This document shows, piece by piece, positions 6,365 through 56,400 of a DNA stretch of 64,000 nt. How positions within the stretch are numbered: position 1 is the stretch's first letter; the number at the start of each line of letters is the position of its first letter. Location of the stretch: assembly GCA_026026165.1 (NCBI GenBank), contig JAPEUD010000047.1, positions 1 through 64,000 on the forward strand. Direction: 5' to 3'. Source of the DNA: Sarea resinae (Eukaryota). The position numbers were made by a program, and so were the translations under genes. The notes beneath the pieces are model-generated. The model was not told the DNA's origin, did not search any database, and saw nothing but the letters and a program-made list of their open reading frames with translations.

Positions 6365-9300
6365 ATGGCTCCCAAGAAGAAGGGAAACAAGAAGGGTAAT
6401 GATGACTGGGAGAGTGAACTGGGCGAAAGCCCCGACCCTATAGCAGCAGCGACTCAAGAAGCAAAGGATAATGACGACGCAAATACTACCGAACCAAGCG
6501 AGGTTGGTGGGGGCGGTCTTCTGGCAGCTTTGAAGAAGAATAGAGGCAAGAAACAGAAGAAGGGCAAGGTCCTGGAGGACTTTGTCGAGGGTGAAGATGC
6601 GACCGCCAGTCCAAGTGGAGAAGACGGCATGACCGGTTTTCCAGACTTGGCCGCAAAGGCCCCACAAGAAGCAACCATGGATGAAGACGAGTTTGCCCTG
6701 CCAGCAAAGAAGACCAAAGGTGGCAAAGATGGAAAGCAGGCCTCTGAGCCAGCTCGGGATGAGGACGAAGACGAGGCCGGCGGACGAGTGAAGAGCAAGA
6801 AGGAAAAAGAAAAGGAGAAGAAAGAGAGAGAGAAGCAGCGAAAGAAAGAACAGGTACGAGAACGACCTTTATCAGTCCTTTCGGTGGCACGACTAATGTC
6901 AAATCTCAAATATAGGCCGCCAAGAAGAAAACTGCAGCCCCTGCGCCCGCAGCGGCTAAGGCTGAGCCTGCTAAACCTGTGCCAGAAGCTAAGCCGCAGC
7001 TTGCTCCTCCGGCTGAAACAGGAGGCAAGAAGAAGAAACTCAGCCCGGCCTTGGCTGCCCTACAAAAGCAACAAGAGCTGAGACGACAGCAAGAGGAAGA
7101 GCAGGCAAGACTGGCTGCAGAGGAGAAGGCTCGCATCGAAGAGGAGGAACGACTGGCTGCCGAAGAAGAACAGAAGCAGGCGGAGGCCAGGGCTGCGAGG
7201 AAGCAGAAGGAGAAGGAGAAGAAGGAGCAGCTCAAGAAAGAGGGCAAGCTCTTGACCAGGGCACAGAGAGAAGCCCAGCAACGAAATGAGCTCAGGATGA
7301 AGCAAATGCTTGCGGCTGGCGCTCAAGTTGCCGGGCTGGAGGGTGGCGCTGAGAAAAAGAAGCCTGTATATGACAGGAAAAAGAAGGGTTCCAAAAAGTC
7401 AAGTGAGGAGGCGAAGAAGGACGACGATCAAGCGGCAGCAGAGGAACAAAAGCGGAAGGAGGAAGAAGAGAAAGCAAGGCAGGCAGAGGCCGAGGCAGCA
7501 GCTGCAAAAGCGGCCGCTGAAGCCGAAGCCGAAAAGGACAAAGAAGATGACGACGACCTCGAAGATTGGGAAGCGGCGGCCGATGCAGACGACGGTCTCA
7601 AGGATAGCTGGGATGCGCCATCAGATGAAGAACAGGAAAATAAAGGGGTTACGAATGGCAAGGCGGCCAATGGAAGCGCGGCAGCCAAGCTCGTTGACCG
7701 AACGAAAGCAACAAATGGGGCTGCGGCTTCAACCCAGAAGGAGGAAGAAGAGTCATCAGACTCGGAGTCAGATTCAGAAGACTCCTCCGAAGACGAAGTC
7801 AAAACTGCAACGCAGCGTGCTGCTGCGCAGAGGAAGCAAGAAGCTGCCGACCGACGGAAGAAGGCGCATGAAGAAGCATTGGCCGCTCGTTCAAAGGATA
7901 ATCTCCGATCACCTATCTGCTGTATTCTGGGACACGTCGATACCGGCAAAACAAAATTGCTCGACAAAATCCGTCAGACCAATGTGCAGGAGGGTGAAGC
8001 CGGCGGTATCACACAGCAGATTGGAGCTACCTACTTTCCGATTGATGCTTTACAACAGAAGACCCAGGTCGTCAACAAAGACGGGTCTTTTGAATTCAAA
8101 GTTCCTGGATTGTTGGTCATCGATACGCCGGGTCACGAGTCTTTCACGAATCTCCGCTCTCGAGGATCATCGCTCTGTAACATTGCTATCCTGGTTGTCG
8201 ATATCATGCACGGTCTTGAACCACAAACACTCGAGTCGATGAGACTTCTCCGAGACAGAAAGACACCATTCATCGTAGCCCTCAACAAAATCGATCGACT
8301 CTACGGCTGGAGAAAGATTGACAACAACGGGTTCCAGGACAGCTTGGCGATGCAGAATAAGGGTGTCCAGAATGAGTTCCGTGACCGACTCGAAAAGACT
8401 AAATTGGCATTTGCAGAACAGGTAAGTCTTTTCCCTCTACGTTGCCACAGCAGCTTCTCATCTAACAATCACTAGGGATTCAACTCGGAGCTCTACTATG
8501 AAAACAAGTCTCTGGCACGGAATGTGTCCCTGGTCCCAACATCTGCCCACACTGGCGAAGGTATCCCTGATATGCTGAAACTTCTCGTCTCTCTATCCCA
8601 AGAGCGGATGACCAAGCAGCTCATGTACCTTTCAGAAGTGGAGTGTACGGTGCTTGAAGTCAAGGTGATTGAGGGTCTTGGAACAACCATCGATGTCGTC
8701 CTTTCGAATGGTATCCTGCGAGAAGGCGACCGGATCGTGCTCTGCGGCCTGAACGGGGCAATAGCCACAAACATCCGAGCCTTGCTGACACCAGCACCGT
8801 TGAAAGAATTGCGTGTGAAATCCCAATACGTTCATAACAAGGAGGTGAAGGCTTCGTTGGGTGTGAAAATCGCTGCCAATGACCTTGAGCACGCGATCGC
8901 CGGATCCCGGCTTCTGGTCGTGGGTCCAGAGGACGATGAAGAGGATCTGGAAGAGGAAGTCATGTCTGATTTGGAGAACCTCCTCGGCAAGGTCTCCAAG
9001 ACCGGTCGTGGTGTCAGCGTGCAATCATCTACGCTTGGATCCCTGGAGGCCTTGCTCGAATTCTTGCGCGTCTCCAAGATCCCTGTCGCCAACATCTCCA
9101 TCGGGCCCGTCTACAAGCGCGACGTCATGCAAGCCGGCATCATGCTTGAGAAGGCCAAAGAATTCGCTGTGATGCTCTGCTTCGACGTCAAGGTCGACAA
9201 AGAGGCCCAAGCGTACGCGGATGACGTTGGCGTCAAGATTTTCACCGCTGATATCATTTATCATCTGTTCGACGACTTCACCAAGCACATCGCCCAGCTG

Positions 9301-42157: not shown

Positions 42158-43054
42158 TCAGGAGGACTTCTCATCTTTCGTCTGAGCATCATCAGAGTCT
42201 CCGACTCTGGTTTCGTTGATTTCCACCATCACCGGCTCTTCATCATCGTCCCTCTGCAGACTCTTACCGTAGTCCTCCCATAGCTTGGCAACAGACTGTC
42301 CAAATAGCTTCTTCCAAAATGATCCCTCTTCGTAACGCCCGCCCTTGAGACTGGCATTGATCATCCTGACACTACCTGCGCCAAAGGTCTTTTCGATGTA
42401 CTCAAGAAAATAGCCAGTGTGCTGATATCCAGCATCCCAGTCACCTCCCCCGTCCCTCGTCCAGTGTGGCGGCACGAAACCTGAGCGCAGCCTTATCCAA
42501 TCTGCAATTCCTTCAATGAGACCTCCCGGTGCAGTGCCGGATGCGTTCCATTGCCAGCAGTGCACCATCTCATGCCTCAGCACACCTAGAATCTCCTCTG
42601 CTTTCCTCTCCTTGGGTATGCCGGCAATGTAGTCCGTTGAGAAATGTATTTCCTTATGATCATCATCAAGATCTGACCCCGTGGTATATGCAACTCCAGG
42701 TATAGCCCGGAGAATGACAGTCACTGAGCGTGTCCCAGGGATGCTCGACGTAGGTACATAGAGCCAGCTCAAAACACCCTCGACAGCTTTCTGGAGGGCC
42801 GAGCTGGCTTCCACCGCAGTCAGAAACTCGCGAGATCCCTTACTAGAGAGGTCACGTATCTCCAAGCGTAGCCTGGGTGTTGGAAAGTTCAAGGGTCTTT
42901 TGCTTTGTTCATCCGGCGAAGTCGTACTCTCCCGGGCAGGTCTCAATGGCAGTGGTGAAGGAGTCGCAGAAGCAGCGGCTGAGCTGGCATCAGATGCAAC
43001 AGTAGACATGCTCATGAAGATTGGTGGAGGTACGCGAGACTGAGATTGCGACAT
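42158..43054 (-). CDS. BSP/PBSP (plant basic secretory protein-like) zincin-type protein
   Basis: 'GVAYT', HExxH motif 'HEMVHCWQW', 'GGLIEGIADWIRL', 'WDAGYQHTGYFL'; intronless; no obvious signal peptide. Confidence 0.88.
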   Translation of the reverse strand: MSQSQSRVPPPIFMSMSTVASDASSAAASATPSPLPLRPARESTTSPDEQSKRPLNFPTPRLRLEIRDLSSKGSREFLTAVEASSALQKAVEGVLSWLYVPTSSIPGTRSVTVILRAIPGVAYTTGSDLDDDHKEIHFSTDYIAGIPKERKAEEILGVLRHEMVHCWQWNASGTAPGGLIEGIADWIRLRSGFVPPHWTRDGGGDWDAGYQHTGYFLEYIEKTFGAGSVRMINASLKGGRYEEGSFWKKLFGQSVAKLWEDYGKSLQRDDDEEPVMVEINETRVGDSDDAQTKDEKSS

Positions 43055-45207
43055 GAATATCCTTTGAGCGAAATGGTTGTGCGCCCCAATGGTGGCTTGA
43101 TAAAGCTCTGATAAAGTAAGGCTGGTAGCTCGAGAGTCGTGAAGATACACGTAACAAAACGTAGGAACGAAACGATCCTCAGTCTCGCGTCCGCACCGAT
43201 AAAACCAGGATCATTCTCTGCTACGTGTACTGTGTAGGAGCTGGCACAAGGGGGTTTGCTGGATGGTTTTACACGGCTGCCCGTTTAGGAATCAGCCTCA
43301 GAGGTAGTTTTCAATAACATGAGGTTCAAAAAGAGATAGGTAAGGCAGATGTAGTTAAGGTAGGTACCTTGTGGATGATTTGATGTTTCGAAGATGTCCG
43401 GCTGCAAGACCCCATTGGGTGTCGTCCAGCCAACGATGGACAGATGCTCTTCTGTTGCAAAAAGAAAACCAGTACAGTAGACCTTCAACAGCGATACAGG
43501 TTTCTTGGTTGGCATACGCAATTCTAGGGGAGAAAAATGCTAACACATATGCAACGAAGGCACATTCATGTCAATGTAATTTTGAATAGAGAGATCGGCG
43601 GGATGAGATTATCATCGATGGTATCTACGTTGACGTCGAACGTTGGGCATCGTATCAGTACCGTAAGGTACCTACAGAGTACTTTACATCCATGCTGTGG
43701 TATACTTGACACGTACAGAGTGCGACGTACCTCATCCACAGCAAGTCCGAAGTACCTCAGTCTACTTGTACTTCATAGGTACAGATGGTGTCCACACCTC
43801 GACGATCGGTCCTTATCAGATCTGATCGATTTGATTCACCCCTCAAGTAAGATTACGACACCGTCAGTGCGCGCCTTCCTTTCCGATATCTATCCTACTG
43901 ACCAGAGGTCTACTACTCTATTCGACACTGCCGTGTCCGTATCACGTCGTCCGCGAGAATTCGTTTTCCCTTCTCCTTTGTTCTTGCTTGAAAGCTTGTG
44001 GTGCAAATGGAAAGATAAGGATCAAGGGTCTTTGGCTTTCGCGTACTCGCCTAACCTAAGAGACCACGCCCCAAAGTAGCTTGGACTCGATGCAGACACT
44101 CATTCAACCTCAGGAACCAAGTACTGGAGACTTAATCTAGTGACCTTAGCCCCTTCCAAGGTTGTTTTGGTCTCGCCAAAGGAGACCGCGACTTCTAACC
44201 GCGATTCAAGTCGTCAAATCGTCAACTTGCCCACACCAGGAGCAGAGTCTCGACCCGTTGATACTCCTTCGTCCCTTCCTTTTTTCCTCCTTCCACCTCA
44301 ACAACCAAGCTCCAGGTAAGTGCGCCTTCCGTTCTGCTGGGCGTCCTATGATGCCATTCCATCATGTTGTTCTTCTCGTGCGCGATGGCCAAAATACCCG
44401 TTCGCGACTCTTCAACCTCACTATCATCACCTTCTTCTTCGCCTTCTCCACCACCTCTTTTTCATTTCTTGTCTTCGGCCCTTTCTGAAAGCTGGCTAAC
44501 GCACTGTCAATATGGCAGGACTCACAGCGTGTGCCGTTTTCTGGATCTTGGCAGTGACTCTATGCGCGCAAGAATCGGGCGTCGCGACCGCTGTTCTCCT
44601 ATTAGTATTGTCTTTATGCTGGAGATCTACAGACTCAGACTGTCCATCGCAACCAGAGATCCCAAAGCGGAGACCATCCATCGCCACCGCCATCACTCCA
44701 GCTCGCCATCAACCTCTCATCCCACGTCCTCTCACACAGATCCCCTTTCCGACACGTCATACTTCTTCCTTACCTCTATCATCAGTCCCTTTTGCTTGTA
44801 CGCCTCCTCTAAGATCTTCGCGACTTAGAATCCCCACGCCTTATCCCCGCCGTTCCATAGCTCTCCTTGCAAATTCAAGACTCCCAGTGCCAGTTTCTGC
44901 CCCAGTACTTTGTTCGTCTGGACAACGGCACCCTCAGCTAAGGAACAGCACGAACTTCATTTCGCGAATTCCAATCAGAACGAGTCCGGTGCCAACGACC
45001 ACAAAGAAGCTGTCATTAGATAGCGAGAACGTATCATCAAAACCACCAATACGAATAGCCTCCGCTCCAGTGCGAACACGTTCAGTCAGCAAAAAGATAG
45101 AAAATAGGGTCAGAAGTGCACCGCGGAAGGGCTCGCTACTTAGACGAGTAGAGACAAACGTCGTCGACGAACGTACCAATCTGCGGCTTGCATCATCTGA
45201 ATCCATC

Positions 45208-48200
45208 ATGGCGAAGCCAATAGACCCCAGAATCACGTACCTGCGTGATACCAGCCGATCAAACGATGACAAAATCAAGTGCATCAACGACGTCAAATCT
45301 ACGATCAAGCACCATGTCGTCAGCGAAGAAGCGGCGCCGAGCATGTTTGAGTTCGTCAGGACAGCCATCTCTTCACAACACTCTAGCATTGTCGTGGCTG
45401 GATTTTCTACTCTAAATCATCTCCTGAAGCGCCTCAACATCCAGGAGCAACCAAAGCTGATCGCGGCACAATCCGGCCGCACATTGCCTCTTCTTATAGA
45501 GCGTCTAGGCGACCCAAAAGAGAGGTATAGACTGTGCGCTGCTCAGGCGCTCGCGGATTTTTGGACCGTATCCCAACTGGACGTGGAACGGGAGATCCGG
45601 GACAGTGCTTTGGCGGGAAAGAATCAGAGAGCCAAGGAAGCCGGGATGCATTGGCTATCAAAAGTAAGCCTGCAGATTTTACTTCCATGGCAGACCTAAC
45701 TTTTGCAGATGTGCTCCGAACAAGGACTGCAGTTTCGAGGCTTTGTGCCTCGACTGATGGATTGCTTGGAAGACGCCGATGGCGGAGTAAGGGAGGCAGC
45801 TAAAACCACAGTTGTCACGATATTTCGGTATATTGATTCCCACGAAGAACTTCCTGAGAAATCATTACTAATACAGTTCATTAGGAACGCCCCTGAACAT
45901 GCGAAATCTGACCTCAAGCGTCAGATGCAGATCCGGGGAGTGAGAAAGGCTATCGCTACCAGCATACTTGTGGATCTCGGTCTTTCTGCTCCAATTGATC
46001 CGGACACGAAGACCACAACCTCTGCAATCGAACCGCCAAAGCAACAAGACTCTCTTGCTGGAGGTACGGGCAATGAGCCACTTCCCGTTCCGGACGTCTC
46101 CACTGTGATAGAGCATGAAGGAGAGCGTCTCGAACCAGCCTATGTGAACTCACAGAGAGAGTTGGATGATACCTTTCGGGATATGGCACCATGGTTTGAG
46201 GGAAAGGAGAGTGAGCAAAATTGGACTGCTCGTGAGAAGAGTATCATAAAATTGCGACAACTCACAAAAGGCAACGCTCCCGCGGATTATTTCACTGCGT
46301 ACGTAGCGGGAATAAAGGGCCTGTTAGATGGAATTCTGAAGACAGTCAACTCTCTCCGAACGACGGTGTCGATGAACGGTTGCCGCTTAGTCCAAGATGT
46401 TGCCCGCGTGCTTGGGCCGGGCCTCGACTCAATGGTAGAGATCCTTCTCCAGAATCTCATCAAGCTATGTGCAGGGACCAAGAAAATCAGTGCTCAGAAC
46501 GGGAACTTGACAGTGGATGCGATATTTGCTCACGTCTCTTATAACCTACGGCTTATGCAGCACCTTTGGGGAGCGTGCCAGGATAAGAATGTCCAACCGC
46601 GTACTTTTGCCGCTGGGTGGCTGCAAACGATCCTTGCCAACCAAGCACATCACAAAGGGCAATTCGATCACTCAGGCGGGCTTGATCTTGCAGAAAAGTG
46701 TATAAAGAAGGGCCTGGCTGATGCGAACCCTGGGGTAAGGGAAAATATGCGCGGCACTTATTGGTCCTTCGCGAAGATCTGGCCGGAGAGGGCGGAAGGG
46801 TAAGAACATCTCCCTTTCTACCTCAACGGATGTCACTAACGAGGAATATCTAGTATCATGTCTTCTCTGGATGGAACTTCTCAAAAATTGTTAGAGAAAG
46901 ATTCGCGGAATCCAAACACGATCAAAAAGCCCGAAACCGCACCAGCTTCAAGCGTCAGACCTACACCAGTCGCGCGGGGGAACTCGGCTCTTGCCAACAG
47001 GCCTTCTTTGAAAGAGACTATAGCAGCACAGAAGCGTGCAAAGTTAGCTGCCAAGGGTCTACCAGATCGCCCAGGTTCTGCCCAGTCTTCATTCTCACCT
47101 GTCAAACATGCTGCTCCGTCCGGCTCCAAGGGATCCTCTGCCGTGTCATCTGCAATGGCCTCGGGGTCACTGATGTCAGCGCCAGTCCGCCCGATGCGAC
47201 CCGCTCGTCGCCCCGAACTCACAAGGCCCGCTACAGCAGACCCATACGCCAGTCGAAGGCCACTCAAAGCTGACACACCAGGAATCAGTCCAGCTGTCAG
47301 TCCATCCAAAACTAAATCAAAAGCCACGTCAGCGACGACTTCGATGAAAACAAAGATGGCACGGACTGGCAGTCCAACCCCAGAGAAATCCAAGTCCAAA
47401 GGGCCTCCCACGTCCGGCATCATCTCTATCGAGGGCGCGGCCCCAAATGCTGATGGCTACTCGACGTCAAGCCCAACAAAAGATGATGAACAGTTGACTA
47501 TGGTGCTTCCAAAGATTAACAAGAGCAAGGACGAAGTCGAATCGCGACCCACTACCAGCGGCAAGGACGTTAGTCTACGTAGCGCATCTCCTGTGAAGGT
47601 CTATGAAGACCCTCAACCTCACGGCGACCATGAAATTAGTCCTGTACAGCACAAACGTACAAAAGCGCTTGAGGAGCTTCCCATAAACGAGCCGGCTAAT
47701 ACTATCCCACCTCTAATCAATGAGGGGACTATCGGTGAAAAGAAACCCGAAGCGGTCGACAAGATTAGCGGCACGGATGAGCAATATCAAGATGAACAAA
47801 ATGCCCGCCGCCTACTTACAAGCGGCATTTCGAAAGCGAAGGCGCGGACACTTGACGTCCATGCCCTGCGAAAACTGCAAACCACTCTGAAAGGCCATCC
47901 AACCGTGTGGGAAAATAGTTCGCATTTTGGTGAACTTTTGCTGCCCCTGCTTTCGTACCTTCAAAATCCAAATGAAGATGCTAGAGTCACACCGAAGAAG
48001 TCCCAAGATCTACAGACGCAAGTTTTGCATACCATTCGCATCATGCTCGACACGAACCAGGAGTTTTTCTCAGCATTCTACGATCAAGCACTCTGTGCTG
48101 TGCTCTTAGCGCGAAAGCACTGGGATAGTACCTCGTATTTTGCGGCTCTCTTGCAAAGCACCGCTGAGCAATTGATCAAGCTAGGGAACACGACGTCCTG

Positions 48201-48567
48201 CTTCAGCTCGGTTCTGGACCTGATGAAGTCGGAGGAGCAGGGCGAAGTACCAAGCCGTATGGCTATCATGTGTCTCCAGACTATCGCGAGACTAATCCAG
48301 AAGGTTGGGACCGAGGATGAGTCACTTTCGGGAGACAAAATTGAGCGGTCGGGCTCATTGATTGGGAGCTGTCTAGACGATCCTGATCCGGATGTCAGAC
48401 GCTCGGCAGTGGAATGCTGCGTCGAACTTTATAATTACCTCCTACCGGCAGAGGGGGAAATCGAGCGGGAAAAGGCCTTCTGGGAGATGGTTCCCGGCGC
48501 AAAAGAGCACCATCGTAATCTCGTTGCCTACTATTTCGCGAAAAGAAACGAGGTCAGTAGCGCATAG
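45208..48567 (+). CDS. STU1: CLASP-family microtubule-associated protein Stu1
   Basis: HEAT/TOG-like N-terminus; CLASP_N motifs 'FEGKESEQNW', 'SLRTTVS', 'DKNVQPR', 'GLADANPGVRE'; introns 45664-45708, 45828-45884 and ~46800-46853; ATG 45208 in ATCATGG context (a longer form may exist, see findings). Confidence 0.93.
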
Positions 48568-52074: not shown

Positions 52075-55000
52075 ATGGAGTCTCCCGGAGTGATCCCGGA
52101 GTCCCCATTAGACCAGGAAGATGCGATATATCCGTGCAAAGGCTGTGGCGAGGTATGCCCATCTTCTGCAAACGGTCATGGATTTGGCGATTTGGGCTGG
52201 GGGGGTGAATGCTAAATCTTTCTCAAACAGATTCTCGAAGAAGGCAAGGCGTTTGAACTTGGTAAGCTCATCCACGGCGATGCCCGCCCCTGAGTCCGGT
52301 ATCATCGTATGCAGCCCAGCCTGCTGACTTTGGTGTGAAGCCGGAAACCGCTGGCATATAGATTGCTTTCGTTGTAATACCTGCGGCACACTCCTTGATT
52401 CGGACGCCAATCTACTCTTGCTCGGAGATGGCTCTCTCATATGCAACAATTGCACGTACAGCTGCAATGCGTGCGGCAACAAGATCGAAGACCTTGCCAT
52501 CCTGACCGGTGATCAAGCGTTCTGCGCGAGCTGTTTCCGCTGTCGCAACTGCAAGCGCAAGATCGAGAACCTCCGCTATGCTCGCACGTCTCAAGGAATC
52601 TTCTGCATGAATTGTCACGAATCGCTCATGGCTCGGCGGCGGAAGAAGTCCAAGTTGGCAAAGCAGCAGACAGCGAACAACTCCTCACCAATGCTCCTCG
52701 ACAAATCTCTCCCATCACTCCCTCCCAGCGCCGTACCCCAAAGCGAGTTTTCGTCCGACGACGGCAAGGCTTCTTCAGAGATCACGATAGAAACCGCGGT
52801 AAACGAGCTCTCACCTCGTCCTAGGCCACCTAATCCAAGATCTGCTTCATCACGGAGCTCGCGAAGAGATCGTTCTCCCGCCCCTCCATCCGATTTCCGT
52901 CAAGGTACCATCTCTTGCTTCACTCTGGCCCAGCACGTCTCACTAACTCATACAGAAAACCTCACCTTGCCCTCAACTACCTACAAATCTACCAATCGTC
53001 ATTCTACAATCTCACATCAATCAGATCTTTCGGGTGAAACCGAAGATTTCTTCATCCCGTTGGCACTTGACACGAGTCCTGTGCCTGGACCGCCTCCAGT
53101 GATCAGAAATAAAAGCGCGGAGCACGAAGCTCCTGAGAAGATGAAGCCAAAGCTCACGGAGAACAAAGTCGGTGGTCGCGACTACTTCGCTGGTTCGAGA
53201 GGGCCTTCATCGCACCACCAGGGTTTGGAGAACCGACCGACCTCATCTCGATCCGCTGCACCCCCGCAGGAAGGCCAGCTTTCCTCATCCGCCGCATCCA
53301 GTCCGCATACCAGTCGTCACGAGAGGGGTCAACTGTCTTCGGAAATCCGCGATACAAGTCGCAGGCGCCAGGAGTCTTCTCGTACAGGTGGACCGACCTC
53401 AACTTCAGCTTCAGCAATGGCTAGCGCTGCAGGGTCGCGTACGCAGCCTCCTGGCTTATCCAATGGTGGATCCGTGAAAGAAAACACGGCAACTAATGGC
53501 TCAACGAGGAGTGAAAGCTTCAAATTACAAGACGTTCCCAAGGCCAAAAGATCTGGCGGTCCAGGACGGAGCCCACGTTCCGAAATTGCGCCTCCCTTCT
53601 CCGATAAATCGTCACTGGAACGTTCACACTCGCCCGCACGTGTTTCCCCTGTTGGCAAGAATGAGAACCAGCAGCCTACAGAGCATCCTCCGCGTCTGGA
53701 TACCGGTGAACCGAGGAGCGGCTCTCCCCGCGTCTCACAAGATTCAAGGAGGCACGAACGTAGTCAGACTGAGTCTGGCCACTCGAGTCCATCGATGACA
53801 TCTTCTCAACCTCTCCAAAAGCCGAAGCGAGAAGACTCTCTGAATGCGCTTCAGTCGAAGCAGTCGATCCCACGGAAAGAGCTTGCCATAGGGAGCCGAA
53901 ACCAAGTCCTTGATCATGGGACAAACGGAGCCCAGACCTCAAGTTCTGCACCAGCAGCATCCCACCCAGCAGCTGCTGCTCTCGGTGAGATCTACGGGAA
54001 AAAGGATGCTAAAGTAGATGATGCCTCGACCTTGAAACATCCGAGCGAGCCTTCTTCTGCACCGCCAGTACGCTCACAGACCCTTCCTGTATCATCGTCG
54101 ATATTGCCCCAGGACGGTTCTTTCACGACGCCACGGCCTGCTCCTCAAACGCCCTCGGAACGCCCGAGAACTCGCAATAATTCCATCAGCGTAGTACCGA
54201 CAGAGTCTCCTCGTAATGGCGAACGCCACACATCCCCAGCCTTACCCCGATACAGCGCAGGGGGAGACTTTTCGATGGACGAGGACATGGCACGCATCTT
54301 GGGTAGTGAAGGTCATGAAGGTCATACATCCGTCTTACGCCGAGTCTCCAAGGCCGTGAAACATGGTCGCAGCGCCAGCGATAAGGGCATGCGATCGCCT
54401 GGATCATACAAGTGGCCAAAATCGCCACTGAGCGGGCCGGTGCCTTCTGCGTATTCGCGTGAGATTAGCAGCCCCAGTTCCGTCGCGTCTGACGTCAAGG
54501 ACGAGGTCATGCGGTTGAGGAACGAGCTTGCCCGTACACAGCACAAGTTAGCGGAGGCCGAAGCTGAGACTAATCTGCTTAAAGAGCACCTCAGTAGTAC
54601 TGCCGACATCAAGCAAGTGAACACTGAGCTTCGCGAGAAGCGATCTACCATGGCTTTCCTTGATACGCAGAAAGAGATTGTCATCCAGGAATTGGAGACG
54701 ATGACAGAGCATATTGCCAAAGCCAAAGAGACTGGGCAGGGTTTCGATGCTAGAAATCTTCAATCCGACATCCTGCATGACTTTGGTCGTGCTCTCCAAA
54801 ACCTCAAGGATTCGTTTGCTTCGGAGATTGAAGAGCTAGTTCACCGGCGGAATCAACTGGCAGACGAGGTTGCGGCCCTCAACGCGGCCAAGGAGAAAGG
54901 ATTCCAGGAATTCGAGCAATTGACGCTGAAAAACGCCCAGTTGGCGGAGCTCAACAATCAACTGGTCCATAACATCCAGGAGCTTTACAAGGCTAACAGA

Positions 55001-56400
55001 GAGCCAATAGTCGGTCCACCGCTAGATAGCGTAAGACCTCCTCCGAACGGCTTGGGCATCTACACGCATCATTACAAGGAGAGGTCGGATGTATCCGTAG
55101 AGGCTCGGGAACAACAGCGTCCTAGCACCGCCGGAGAAGGATCGCAAGCTAGCTCCCAGCCTACGATGCAACAGGAACAGGAAGCCGAGCCAGCAACAGT
55201 CCTTACCGCTCCTCAGGTCGTCAACATTCGCAAGGGACAACCTAAAAAGTTCAATTGGAAGAAGGGAGGCCATAGCGTTGCCAAAGGGGTCTCAAAGGGC
55301 CTCAAAGGAGCTTTCTCGTCCAAGGATGGACAAATCACCGAAGGAGTTCCATACGGCGTCATACCTCCTGGATCAGAAAATTCAAGTAGCAGTCTGCCAC
55401 GTTCGGTCAATGACTCTCGCCAAACCTTTGGGTTCTTTGGCAACCAGAAGCCTGGAACGACAAAGGCTGGGCAATGGAAGGGCGTCCCCAATGGGAGTGG
55501 AAGCTTTTCATCGTCTAATGCAGAGAATGGCGCAGGTAAGTCCGACTCATATCATGGCATCAATGGACGGTCCAAGCTGACCAGTTCTAAGTTTTGTTTG
55601 GCTCGGAGCTGGATATTCGTGCTCAGCATGAGAAGCGTGACATTCCGAGCATCATCACTCGATGTATCGAGGAAGTCGAACTTCGCGGTCTGTACCAACA
55701 ACAAGGTTTTAACTTTTCTCTCGCTGACTTCAATCATAGGCATGGATGCGGAGGGAATTTACAGAAAATCCGGTGGCGCCAGTCAGGTCAAGGTCGTGAC
55801 CGAAGGGTTCGAAAAGACGGACGATTATGACATTTCTGATCCCGATCTCGATATCCATGCCGTCACGTCTGCGCTGAAATCTTACTTTCACAAGTTGCCG
55901 ACTCCCCTCATCACCTACGAGGTCTACGATAAGATACTGGATTCGACTCGTAAGTTTATGTACCACCTTTTGTTTTTCAAGTCAGAGCTTGTGGGTCTAA
56001 CCGTGGGCCAGTAATCGCGGATGCGGATAAACGTGCCTTGGCACTGAGGACCGCCATTCTAGATCTGCCGCGTCGCCATCGCGATTGTCTTGAATTCCTC
56101 GTCTTTCACCTTGCTCGTGTTACGGATCGCGTGAAGGATAACAAGGTATGCGTCTTGTCACTTGCCGTACTCTTGGAATATCTGTCTACGACCAAAACGC
56201 CTTTCAGCTGACCCGAACTGACTGACTTTTTTTAGATGTCCCCACTCAACCTAGCTGTTGTTTTCGCCCCAACCATCATGCGTCCCCGCACGATTGAACG
56301 CGAGATGACGGATATCCAACCGAAGCAGCAGGCCGTGCAATTTATCATCGAAAACAATAAGATGATCTTCGCTGTCGAGAACGAGGCTGGGGAAGGGTGA
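52075..56400 (+). CDS. RGA1: LIM-domain Rho GTPase-activating protein (Rga1/Rga2-like)
   Basis: N-terminal LIM domains ('CKGCGE...WHIDCFRCNTC', 'CNACGNKIEDLAIL...CFRCRNC'); coiled coil; RhoGAP 'LFGSEL...CIEEVELRGMDAEGIYRKSG', 'MSPLNLAVVFAPTIM'. Confidence 0.9.

Follow-up and report, generated by a model that had tools for sequence, protein, structure and literature searches.

The window analysed here is the whole of a 64,000-nucleotide (nt) stretch of the genome of Sarea resinae, a resin-dwelling ascomycete (GenBank assembly GCA_026026165.1, contig JAPEUD010000047.1, positions 1 to 64,000 of the forward strand). It carries a gene for Stu1/CLASP. The proteins of this family, fungal Stu1/Cls1 and animal CLASP1/2, are TOG-domain microtubule rescue factors. 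The Sarea gene starts at ATG 45208 and is interrupted by three verified introns of 45, 57 and 54 nt. Pfam CLASP_N (PF12348) matches its product twice, with E-values of 8.1e-24 (TOG1, residues 248–389 of P0001) and 8.6e-104. Full-length similarity is found in eight database relatives and 15 metagenome loci, at 36–53% identity. A ninth database protein, P0003 (1067 residues; source name: Sarea resinae MAG protein), agrees with the window with 0 mismatches. The Sarea gene shares CLASP_N/TOG and the start methionine with its fungal relatives and is, by its sequence, a true Stu1/CLASP orthologue and an ordinary family member. Immediately upstream lies a 232-codon segment (44512–45207) that is open in the Stu1 frame and three-base periodic. 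The favoured reading, held with about as much belief as doubt, is that this segment is a lineage-specific coding 5′ extension of Stu1/CLASP and at the same time serves the canonical mRNA as its leader. The features concerned are the following.

44512–45207, forward strand: 232-codon open, three-base periodic extension in the Stu1 frame; candidate coding sequence (CDS) of a long isoform
44512–44514, forward strand: candidate long-isoform start codon, with A at −3, G at +4 and an in-frame TAA 12 nt upstream
44515–44625, forward strand: two hydrophobic segments (residues 2–19 and 24–38, with QES between them); candidate membrane hairpin or signal anchor
44734–44745, forward strand: TQIP, SxIP-type motif in a basic, acid-free context
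44764–44775 and 44875–44886, forward strand: SSLP and SRLP, SxIP variants between TQIP and SRIP
44962–44973, forward strand: SRIP, canonical SxIP-type motif with basic and Ser/Thr/Pro neighbours
44619–45207, forward strand: 589-nt stretch without ATG in any frame, leader-like
44562–44828, forward strand: candidate upstream open reading frames (uORFs) from ATGs 44562 and 44616, frame +2, each with T at −3, sharing the stop TAG 44826
44316–44518, forward strand: putative 203-nt intron (GTAAGT 44316, CTAAC 44496–44500, CAG ending 44518)
44150–44315, forward strand: putative upstream noncoding exon, open in the joined frame, without ATG or periodicity
45208–48567, forward strand: canonical Stu1/CLASP gene (exons 45208–45663, 45709–45827, 45885–46799 and 46854–48564; stop 48565–48567)
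42161–43210, reverse strand: BSP-family peptidase gene, the divergent neighbour of Stu1 in conserved synteny

The frame of the Stu1 ATG, called frame 0, is uninterrupted back to 44500, where an in-frame TAA (44497–44499) precedes it. ATG 44512 is the sole in-frame ATG of the extension and lies 232 codons before the Stu1 ATG; the coordinates given for this frame in the initial annotation, which proposed a membrane-anchored long isoform, are correct. Over 44500–45207 frame 0 contains no stop, and the other two forward frames contain nine and five. The openness exceeds chance. Frame 0 stays free of stops in 1 of 5000 dinucleotide shuffles and, when local composition is preserved block by block, in 8 of 20000; for either half on its own the share is about 2.2% (217 and 215 of 10000). 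The A-rich last 99 codons are also open in frame 0, with five and four stops in the other forward frames. By calculation, the 14 stop trinucleotides present in the region in all frames would all miss frame 0 with a probability of (2/3)^14, about 0.003. Given the position-specific composition, about 6.5 frame-0 stops are expected and 0 observed (P about 0.0014, calculated). The open frame alone proves little, because a per-gene chance of about 5e-4 still yields a handful of such genes per genome.

Other causes were considered. An antisense gene, which might also have produced the periodicity, was rejected, the minus frames holding 21, 13 and 15 stops over 44150–45207. A separate upstream gene that ends at its own stop after splicing was rejected as well: 44519–45260 contains 0 intron candidates, relaxed signals included, and an open reading frame (ORF) from 44512 must therefore fuse with Stu1. 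Frame +2 of the same segment has a single stop (TAG 44826) in 222 codons, with open stretches at 44352–44828 and 44829–45023 on the forward strand. The intergenic region also contains a 183-codon open frame at 43528–44079 (forward strand); Pfam matches none of these frames. Long off-frame ORFs do occur in the Sarea genome, since a 313-codon open frame at 7301–8239 (forward strand) overlaps a 519-codon ORF at 6916–8472 in a different frame.

Three-base periodicity is confined to the open segment and sets in at about ATG 44512. The periodicity chi-squared statistic (6 degrees of freedom) of 44512–45207 is 27.7, against a median of 27.9 for 105 CDS windows from long ORFs. All 116 noncoding windows of the same length fall below this value, with a maximum of 16.2. 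The CDS training set consisted of 16 long ORFs of the window, one without a Pfam match and one containing a 57-nt intron; the noncoding set may include short exons. A larger noncoding null from related loci was left unused, as its clean windows were too few (19, which overlap and probably contain short exons). Under an exact null of independent codons with the frame kept open, 27.7 is reached in 14 of 20000 draws. Markov chains of orders 1–4 trained on the extension reach it in 0, 2, 1 and 0 of 4000 draws; k-mer content does not explain the periodicity, because these nulls fail to reproduce the value. The signal is strong in 44512–44910 (24.3). The statistic is 3.2 for the rest of the intergenic region (43211–44511), 4.5 for the putative upstream exon and 6.5 for the putative intron. 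The spacers between BSP and Stu1 in ten relatives, two of them nearly identical, give 2.2–12.4. In 13 loci, the 450 nt preceding the Stu1 methionine give 1.5–11.8 and the first 450 nt of the Stu1 CDS 30.8–87.5.

The base pattern is uniform along the extension. A is lowest at codon position 2 in all seven 99-nt blocks of 44515–45207, and the block directly upstream shows a different phase. Among short words, the pentamer ATCCC occurs five times in the extension, four of them in one codon phase reading Ile-Pro (44659, 44719, 44740 and 44830); CCTCT and CCAGT have four occurrences each, in one phase. These phase-locked pentamers underlie both the periodicity and the recurring [IL]P motifs. A tandem or trinucleotide repeat was rejected as the source: none lies inside the extension, and the sole array (44206–44225, period 8) is upstream. 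A mobile element was likewise rejected, as there are no notable direct repeat families and only one 14-nt inverted pair. Its arms, 44114–44127 and 44902–44915, are 93% complementary and 774 nt apart; the first arm closely precedes the putative first exon, the second is near the point where strong periodicity ends, and the pair may be a chance occurrence.

The conceptual translation of the extension begins with two hydrophobic stretches and continues as a Ser/Pro/Arg(/Leu)-rich sequence, as the initial annotation had described. The Kyte–Doolittle mean of residues 1–19 is 2.12, above the usual membrane-segment threshold of 1.6 over about 19 residues. A mean of at least 2.12 occurs in 22 of 11408 stop-free noncoding 19-mers and in 0 of the 176 that start with ATG. 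The second segment (24–38), which a hairpin would require, is strongly hydrophobic but just 15 residues long. Within the hydrophobic block, codon position 1 is G-rich and position 2 T/C-rich. If translated, the extension could plausibly be anchored in a membrane, its first segment having sufficient length and hydrophobicity.

In clients of EB1/Bim1, [ST]x[IL]P lies within basic, Ser/Pro-rich sequence that lacks acidic residues. The four motifs of this type claimed earlier (TQIP, SSLP, SRLP and SRIP) are all in place, and their basic context holds as well. Their enrichment is marginal: in amino-acid shuffles, two strict motifs compare with 0.40 expected (P 0.06) and four loose motifs with 1.06 expected (P 0.018). 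The Stu1 body itself contains no [ST]x[IL]P motif. A scan of seven relatives gave three isolated matches (P0004, P0008 and P0009) and none in the other four. Yeast Stu1 on the spindle shows no fall, and even a slight rise, without Bim1 (PMC10162426).

The arrangement of ATGs resembles that of a leader. The 589-nt stretch before the Stu1 ATG has 0 ATGs, where dinucleotide shuffles average 4.09 (P 0.005). Depletion that extends to every frame typifies a scanned leader and is no feature of ordinary coding sequence; it is in keeping with use of the segment as leader of the canonical mRNA, be it coding as well or not. Of the seven ATGs in 44150–45207, five fall within the putative intron; the others are at 44562 and 44616. 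The intron is uncertain. Its CTAAC (within GCTAAC, 44495–44500) lies 19 nt from the acceptor CAG, and ATG 44512 sits, as previously noted, just inside its 3′ end, by 7 nt. The strict pattern occurs three times on the forward strand of the window, the other two instances being 54 and 62 nt long and located at ORF junctions. It arises in 64 of 5000 shuffles of 44150–45207, which scales to about 0.8 chance patterns per strand per 64 kb. The candidate's length of 203 nt is about four times that of the verified Stu1 introns and is atypical (others 45–62 nt).

Splicing at this putative intron would join an ATG-free exon in frame, as the initial annotation had proposed; the joined frame is open from 44150, including TTG 44162. 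Two routes to a long form suggested there fared less well. Intron retention is a poor route, as four out-of-frame ATGs of the intron (44348, 44351, 44364 and 44385) come before 44512. Two of the four have a good context, and the frames of two continue beyond 44512. Non-AUG initiation in the upstream exon finds no support, given the chi-squared value of 4.5 and the lack of a good-context near-cognate codon there. In-frame near-cognates with a purine at −3 and G at +4 are found only at 44548, 45097 and 45106. The simple route to a long form would be a transcription start within 44386–44511, in or just after the pyrimidine-rich tract.

The coding reading of 44512–45207 would then operate as follows. 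(i) From a distal start between 44386 and 44511, in the pyrimidine-rich tract, AUG 44512 would become the first AUG of the transcript. (ii) The long product would have 1299 residues and would comprise a hydrophobic hairpin or signal anchor (residues 2–38), a linker and the complete canonical Stu1. (iii) The linker of about 190 residues would be basic and Pro/Ser-rich, with the SxIP-type motifs. (iv) Because positive charges follow the second hydrophobic segment, the CLASP part would be placed on the cytosolic side. (v) A proximal start anywhere in the ATG-free 44617–45207 would yield the canonical 1067-residue protein from AUG 45208. (vi) A transcript from farther upstream with 44316–44518 spliced out would likewise encode the canonical protein. 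The same DNA would thus be CDS for one mRNA class and leader for the other. A more specific version, in which a distal-promoter isoform combines a hairpin anchor in the endoplasmic reticulum (ER) or nuclear envelope with an SxIP tether that binds EB1/Bim1, and so couples the membrane to growing microtubule ends, is judged unlikely.

Several results weigh against a coding extension. Of the five coding measures applied, periodicity alone is clearly positive, and the last 297 nt (44911–45207) have a chi-squared value of 8.9, which is not significant alone. With stops ignored, codon usage ranks frame 0 as the worst of the three (D −0.058); a D as low as this occurs in 1% of the 105 CDS windows, and the Stu1 disordered region scores +0.164. 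A three-periodic second-order Markov model is about equal across frames (0.0097, 0.0136 and 0.0083), with references of 0.057 ± 0.028 for CDS, 0.008 for CDS off-frames and −0.026 ± 0.025 for noncoding DNA. Synonymous codon usage of the extension is −0.027, compared with 0.020 ± 0.037 in CDS and −0.048 ± 0.041 in noncoding DNA; a value that low occurs in 3.8% of CDS windows and one that high in 31% of noncoding windows. The general CDS position model favours frame +2, which has five stops. The intron pattern, which is well formed, would excise ATG 44512, and the deposited model P0003 begins at 45208 without the extension. It would also, in our judgement, be biologically unexpected for an essential spindle protein to carry a membrane anchor.

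Homology searches and related loci are no more favourable. A phmmer search of the 232 residues against 1.84 billion representative proteins gave 0 matches, and comparison of the extension with Pfam gave none. Rfam gave no match either, and tblastn, blastn and tblastx of the extension against the 15 related loci returned chance-level matches only. All nine database matches to the extended query span only its TOG1 part (33–42% of the query). The Stu1 N-terminus is covered in 14 of the 15 metagenome loci (36–52% identical), and in all 14 the frame is closed 2–126 codons upstream of the conserved methionine; the open frame, whose conservation in related fungi had been put forward as a check, is not conserved. 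Relatives have a conserved start, M-A/T/V-D/E-K/R, and the four relatives' proteins whose N-termini were inspected begin at the same methionine. A coding extension must accept codon statistics in the lowest 1–4% of CDS windows and zero conservation. The nearest relatives are just 36–53% identical in the conserved TOG1, and because they are so distant a disordered segment could be diverged beyond recognition.

Codon choice, compared with that of the disordered region of Stu1, speaks for coding. The unusual preference for A-ending codons is similar in the extension and that region (CCA 0.50 versus 0.46; CTA 0.24 versus 0.23). A position-specific model derived from the region ranks frame 0 best in three of three sub-blocks, by a margin that 12% of noncoding windows match. 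Protein-language-model 'recognition' gave 1423 for the extension and 1139 for the genuine disordered region; this measure cannot discriminate here, because the real region scores alike.

The segment could instead be a noncoding 5′ leader and core promoter, with or without an intron at 44316–44518 in the 5′ untranslated region, and its openness, periodicity and hydrophobic start would then be coincidental. This is possible, though on the unlikely side. The codon-based measures do lie within the noncoding range. The 589 ATG-free nt are what a scanned leader would show, and in relatives as many as 479 nt ahead of the methionine can be free of ATG. In Sarea a pyrimidine-rich block (−301 to −525) is followed by an A-rich stretch toward the Stu1 ATG, a layout like that of filamentous-fungal promoters and leaders; the relatives are C/T-rich over −1 to −375. 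A leader is also suited by the intron pattern, the lack of homologues, the annotated start at 45208 and the absence of an extension from all 14 relatives, and a per-gene chance of about 5e-4 would still produce several such genes per genome. The cost is that a noncoding leader must combine two independent coincidences, an open frame (about 4e-4) and the periodicity (about 7e-4 if the frame is open), and none of the comparable noncoding stretches examined shows such periodicity. A third coincidence would be the hydrophobic segment right behind the sole in-frame ATG, an arrangement without parallel among the 176 ATG-started noncoding 19-mers. For the strict intron pattern, chance predicts about 0.8 occurrences on each strand of 64 kb, and the candidate spans 203 nt against 45–57 nt in the verified introns.

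Two further explanations retain a coding history or a different mode of initiation. An untranslated coding relic, that is, a small upstream gene or captured fragment, possibly once read in frame +2 and now open in frame 0 by chance or recent decay, is considered quite improbable. The distance from BSP residue ~108 to the Stu1 methionine is 2322 nt in Sarea and 883–1481 nt in ten relatives, and the Sarea lineage therefore gained 1.0–1.4 kb. This additional DNA also counts on the side of a coding extension. A relic would account for it and for the periodicity, and would agree with the poor frame-0 codon measures. Frame +2, with one stop (TAG 44826) between 44352 and 45021, is the best fit both to the general CDS position model and by its purine/pyrimidine pattern. 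Decay of such a relic sits poorly with the 0 frame-0 stops where about 6.5 are expected (P about 0.0014), when frame +2 has five against about 6.6 expected. Moreover, neither a homologue nor a Pfam match was found for the frame +2 ORF (P0012), there are neither flanking nor tandem repeats, and phmmer found no paralogue of the frame-0 translation. In Neurospora crassa, the cpc-1 leader exceeds 700 nt, is free of in-frame stops and holds two uORFs, and near-cognate initiation gives N-terminally extended isoforms; the extension begins at near-cognate codons and is conserved in 100 homologues (PMC5487733). An arrangement of this kind in Sarea, with a long spliced leader, uORFs at AUG 44562 and 44616 and occasional near-cognate starts that extend Stu1 without AUG 44512, is very improbable. 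The joined frame of 44150–44315 and 44519–45207 is free of stops and ATGs in keeping with that precedent, and the leader has two weak-context upstream AUGs and is otherwise ATG-free. Against this, the upstream exon's periodicity (4.5) is not significant, and in its joined frame A peaks at position 2, where it is lowest in the extension. Good-context in-frame near-cognates number only three (44548, 45097 and 45106), and unlike that of cpc-1 the extension is conserved in 0 of 14 relatives. Sarea shares with cpc-1 a stop-free leader and candidate uORFs; it differs in having an AUG in good context, periodicity from that AUG and no conservation.

Taken as a coding extension, 44512–45207 has partial counterparts elsewhere. 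Within the CLASP family, no relative examined carries anything before TOG1. STIM1 is an animal ER transmembrane protein that tracks microtubule plus ends via an SxIP-type motif (TRIP) bound by EB1. An integral membrane protein with SxIP that links membrane to microtubule ends is the mechanism which the initial annotation proposed for Sarea; STIM1 is, however, unrelated in sequence, animal, and without TOG domains. Mammalian CLASP2 reportedly has isoforms from alternative 5′ exons, one with a palmitoylation motif (Akhmanova and colleagues, 2001). If so, the logic is the same, in that alternative 5′ ends give a membrane-associating N-terminus beside a soluble form; the differences are lipid modification versus hydrophobic helices, a metazoan host and unrelated sequences. 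By its sequence, the extension belongs to none of STIM1, the CLASP2 isoforms and cpc-1. Animal CLASPs reach membranes through partner proteins, and animals couple membrane to plus ends with separate adaptors or STIM1. Fungal Stu1 is regarded as a soluble, EB1-independent spindle and kinetochore factor. A CLASP with its own transmembrane anchor did not turn up in literature searches, which were not exhaustive. The SxIP motifs of animal CLASPs lie between TOG2 and TOG3 and not at the N-terminus (general statements in PMC6641166 and PMC5994897).

A fungal CLASP with its own anchor and EB1-binding motifs would, if real, represent a new way of attaching plus ends to a membrane, and the anchored isoform would also stabilise microtubule ends. 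If the coding reading is correct, the locus would be an example of DNA that serves at once as CDS and as the AUG-free leader of the canonical mRNA. Should the segment prove noncoding, it would be a warning of how closely a fungal leader can resemble coding DNA. As a point of method, the candidate was missed by codon-usage models and by the deposited gene model, and came to light through periodicity restricted to an open frame without annotation.

The surroundings of the gene are partly conserved. The divergent BSP peptidase/Stu1 pair retains its synteny in ten distant fungal relatives. A LIM-RhoGAP gene 3′ of Stu1 (52328–56011, forward strand) is syntenic in four of those ten (L001, L008, L012 and L015), with 90–93% identity over a stretch of 76–79 residues. 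Within Stu1 itself, the second intron (45828–45884) has an unusual donor, GTATAT, and the branch site ACTAAT; splice signals in the Sarea genome are therefore looser than GTAAGT/CTAAC.

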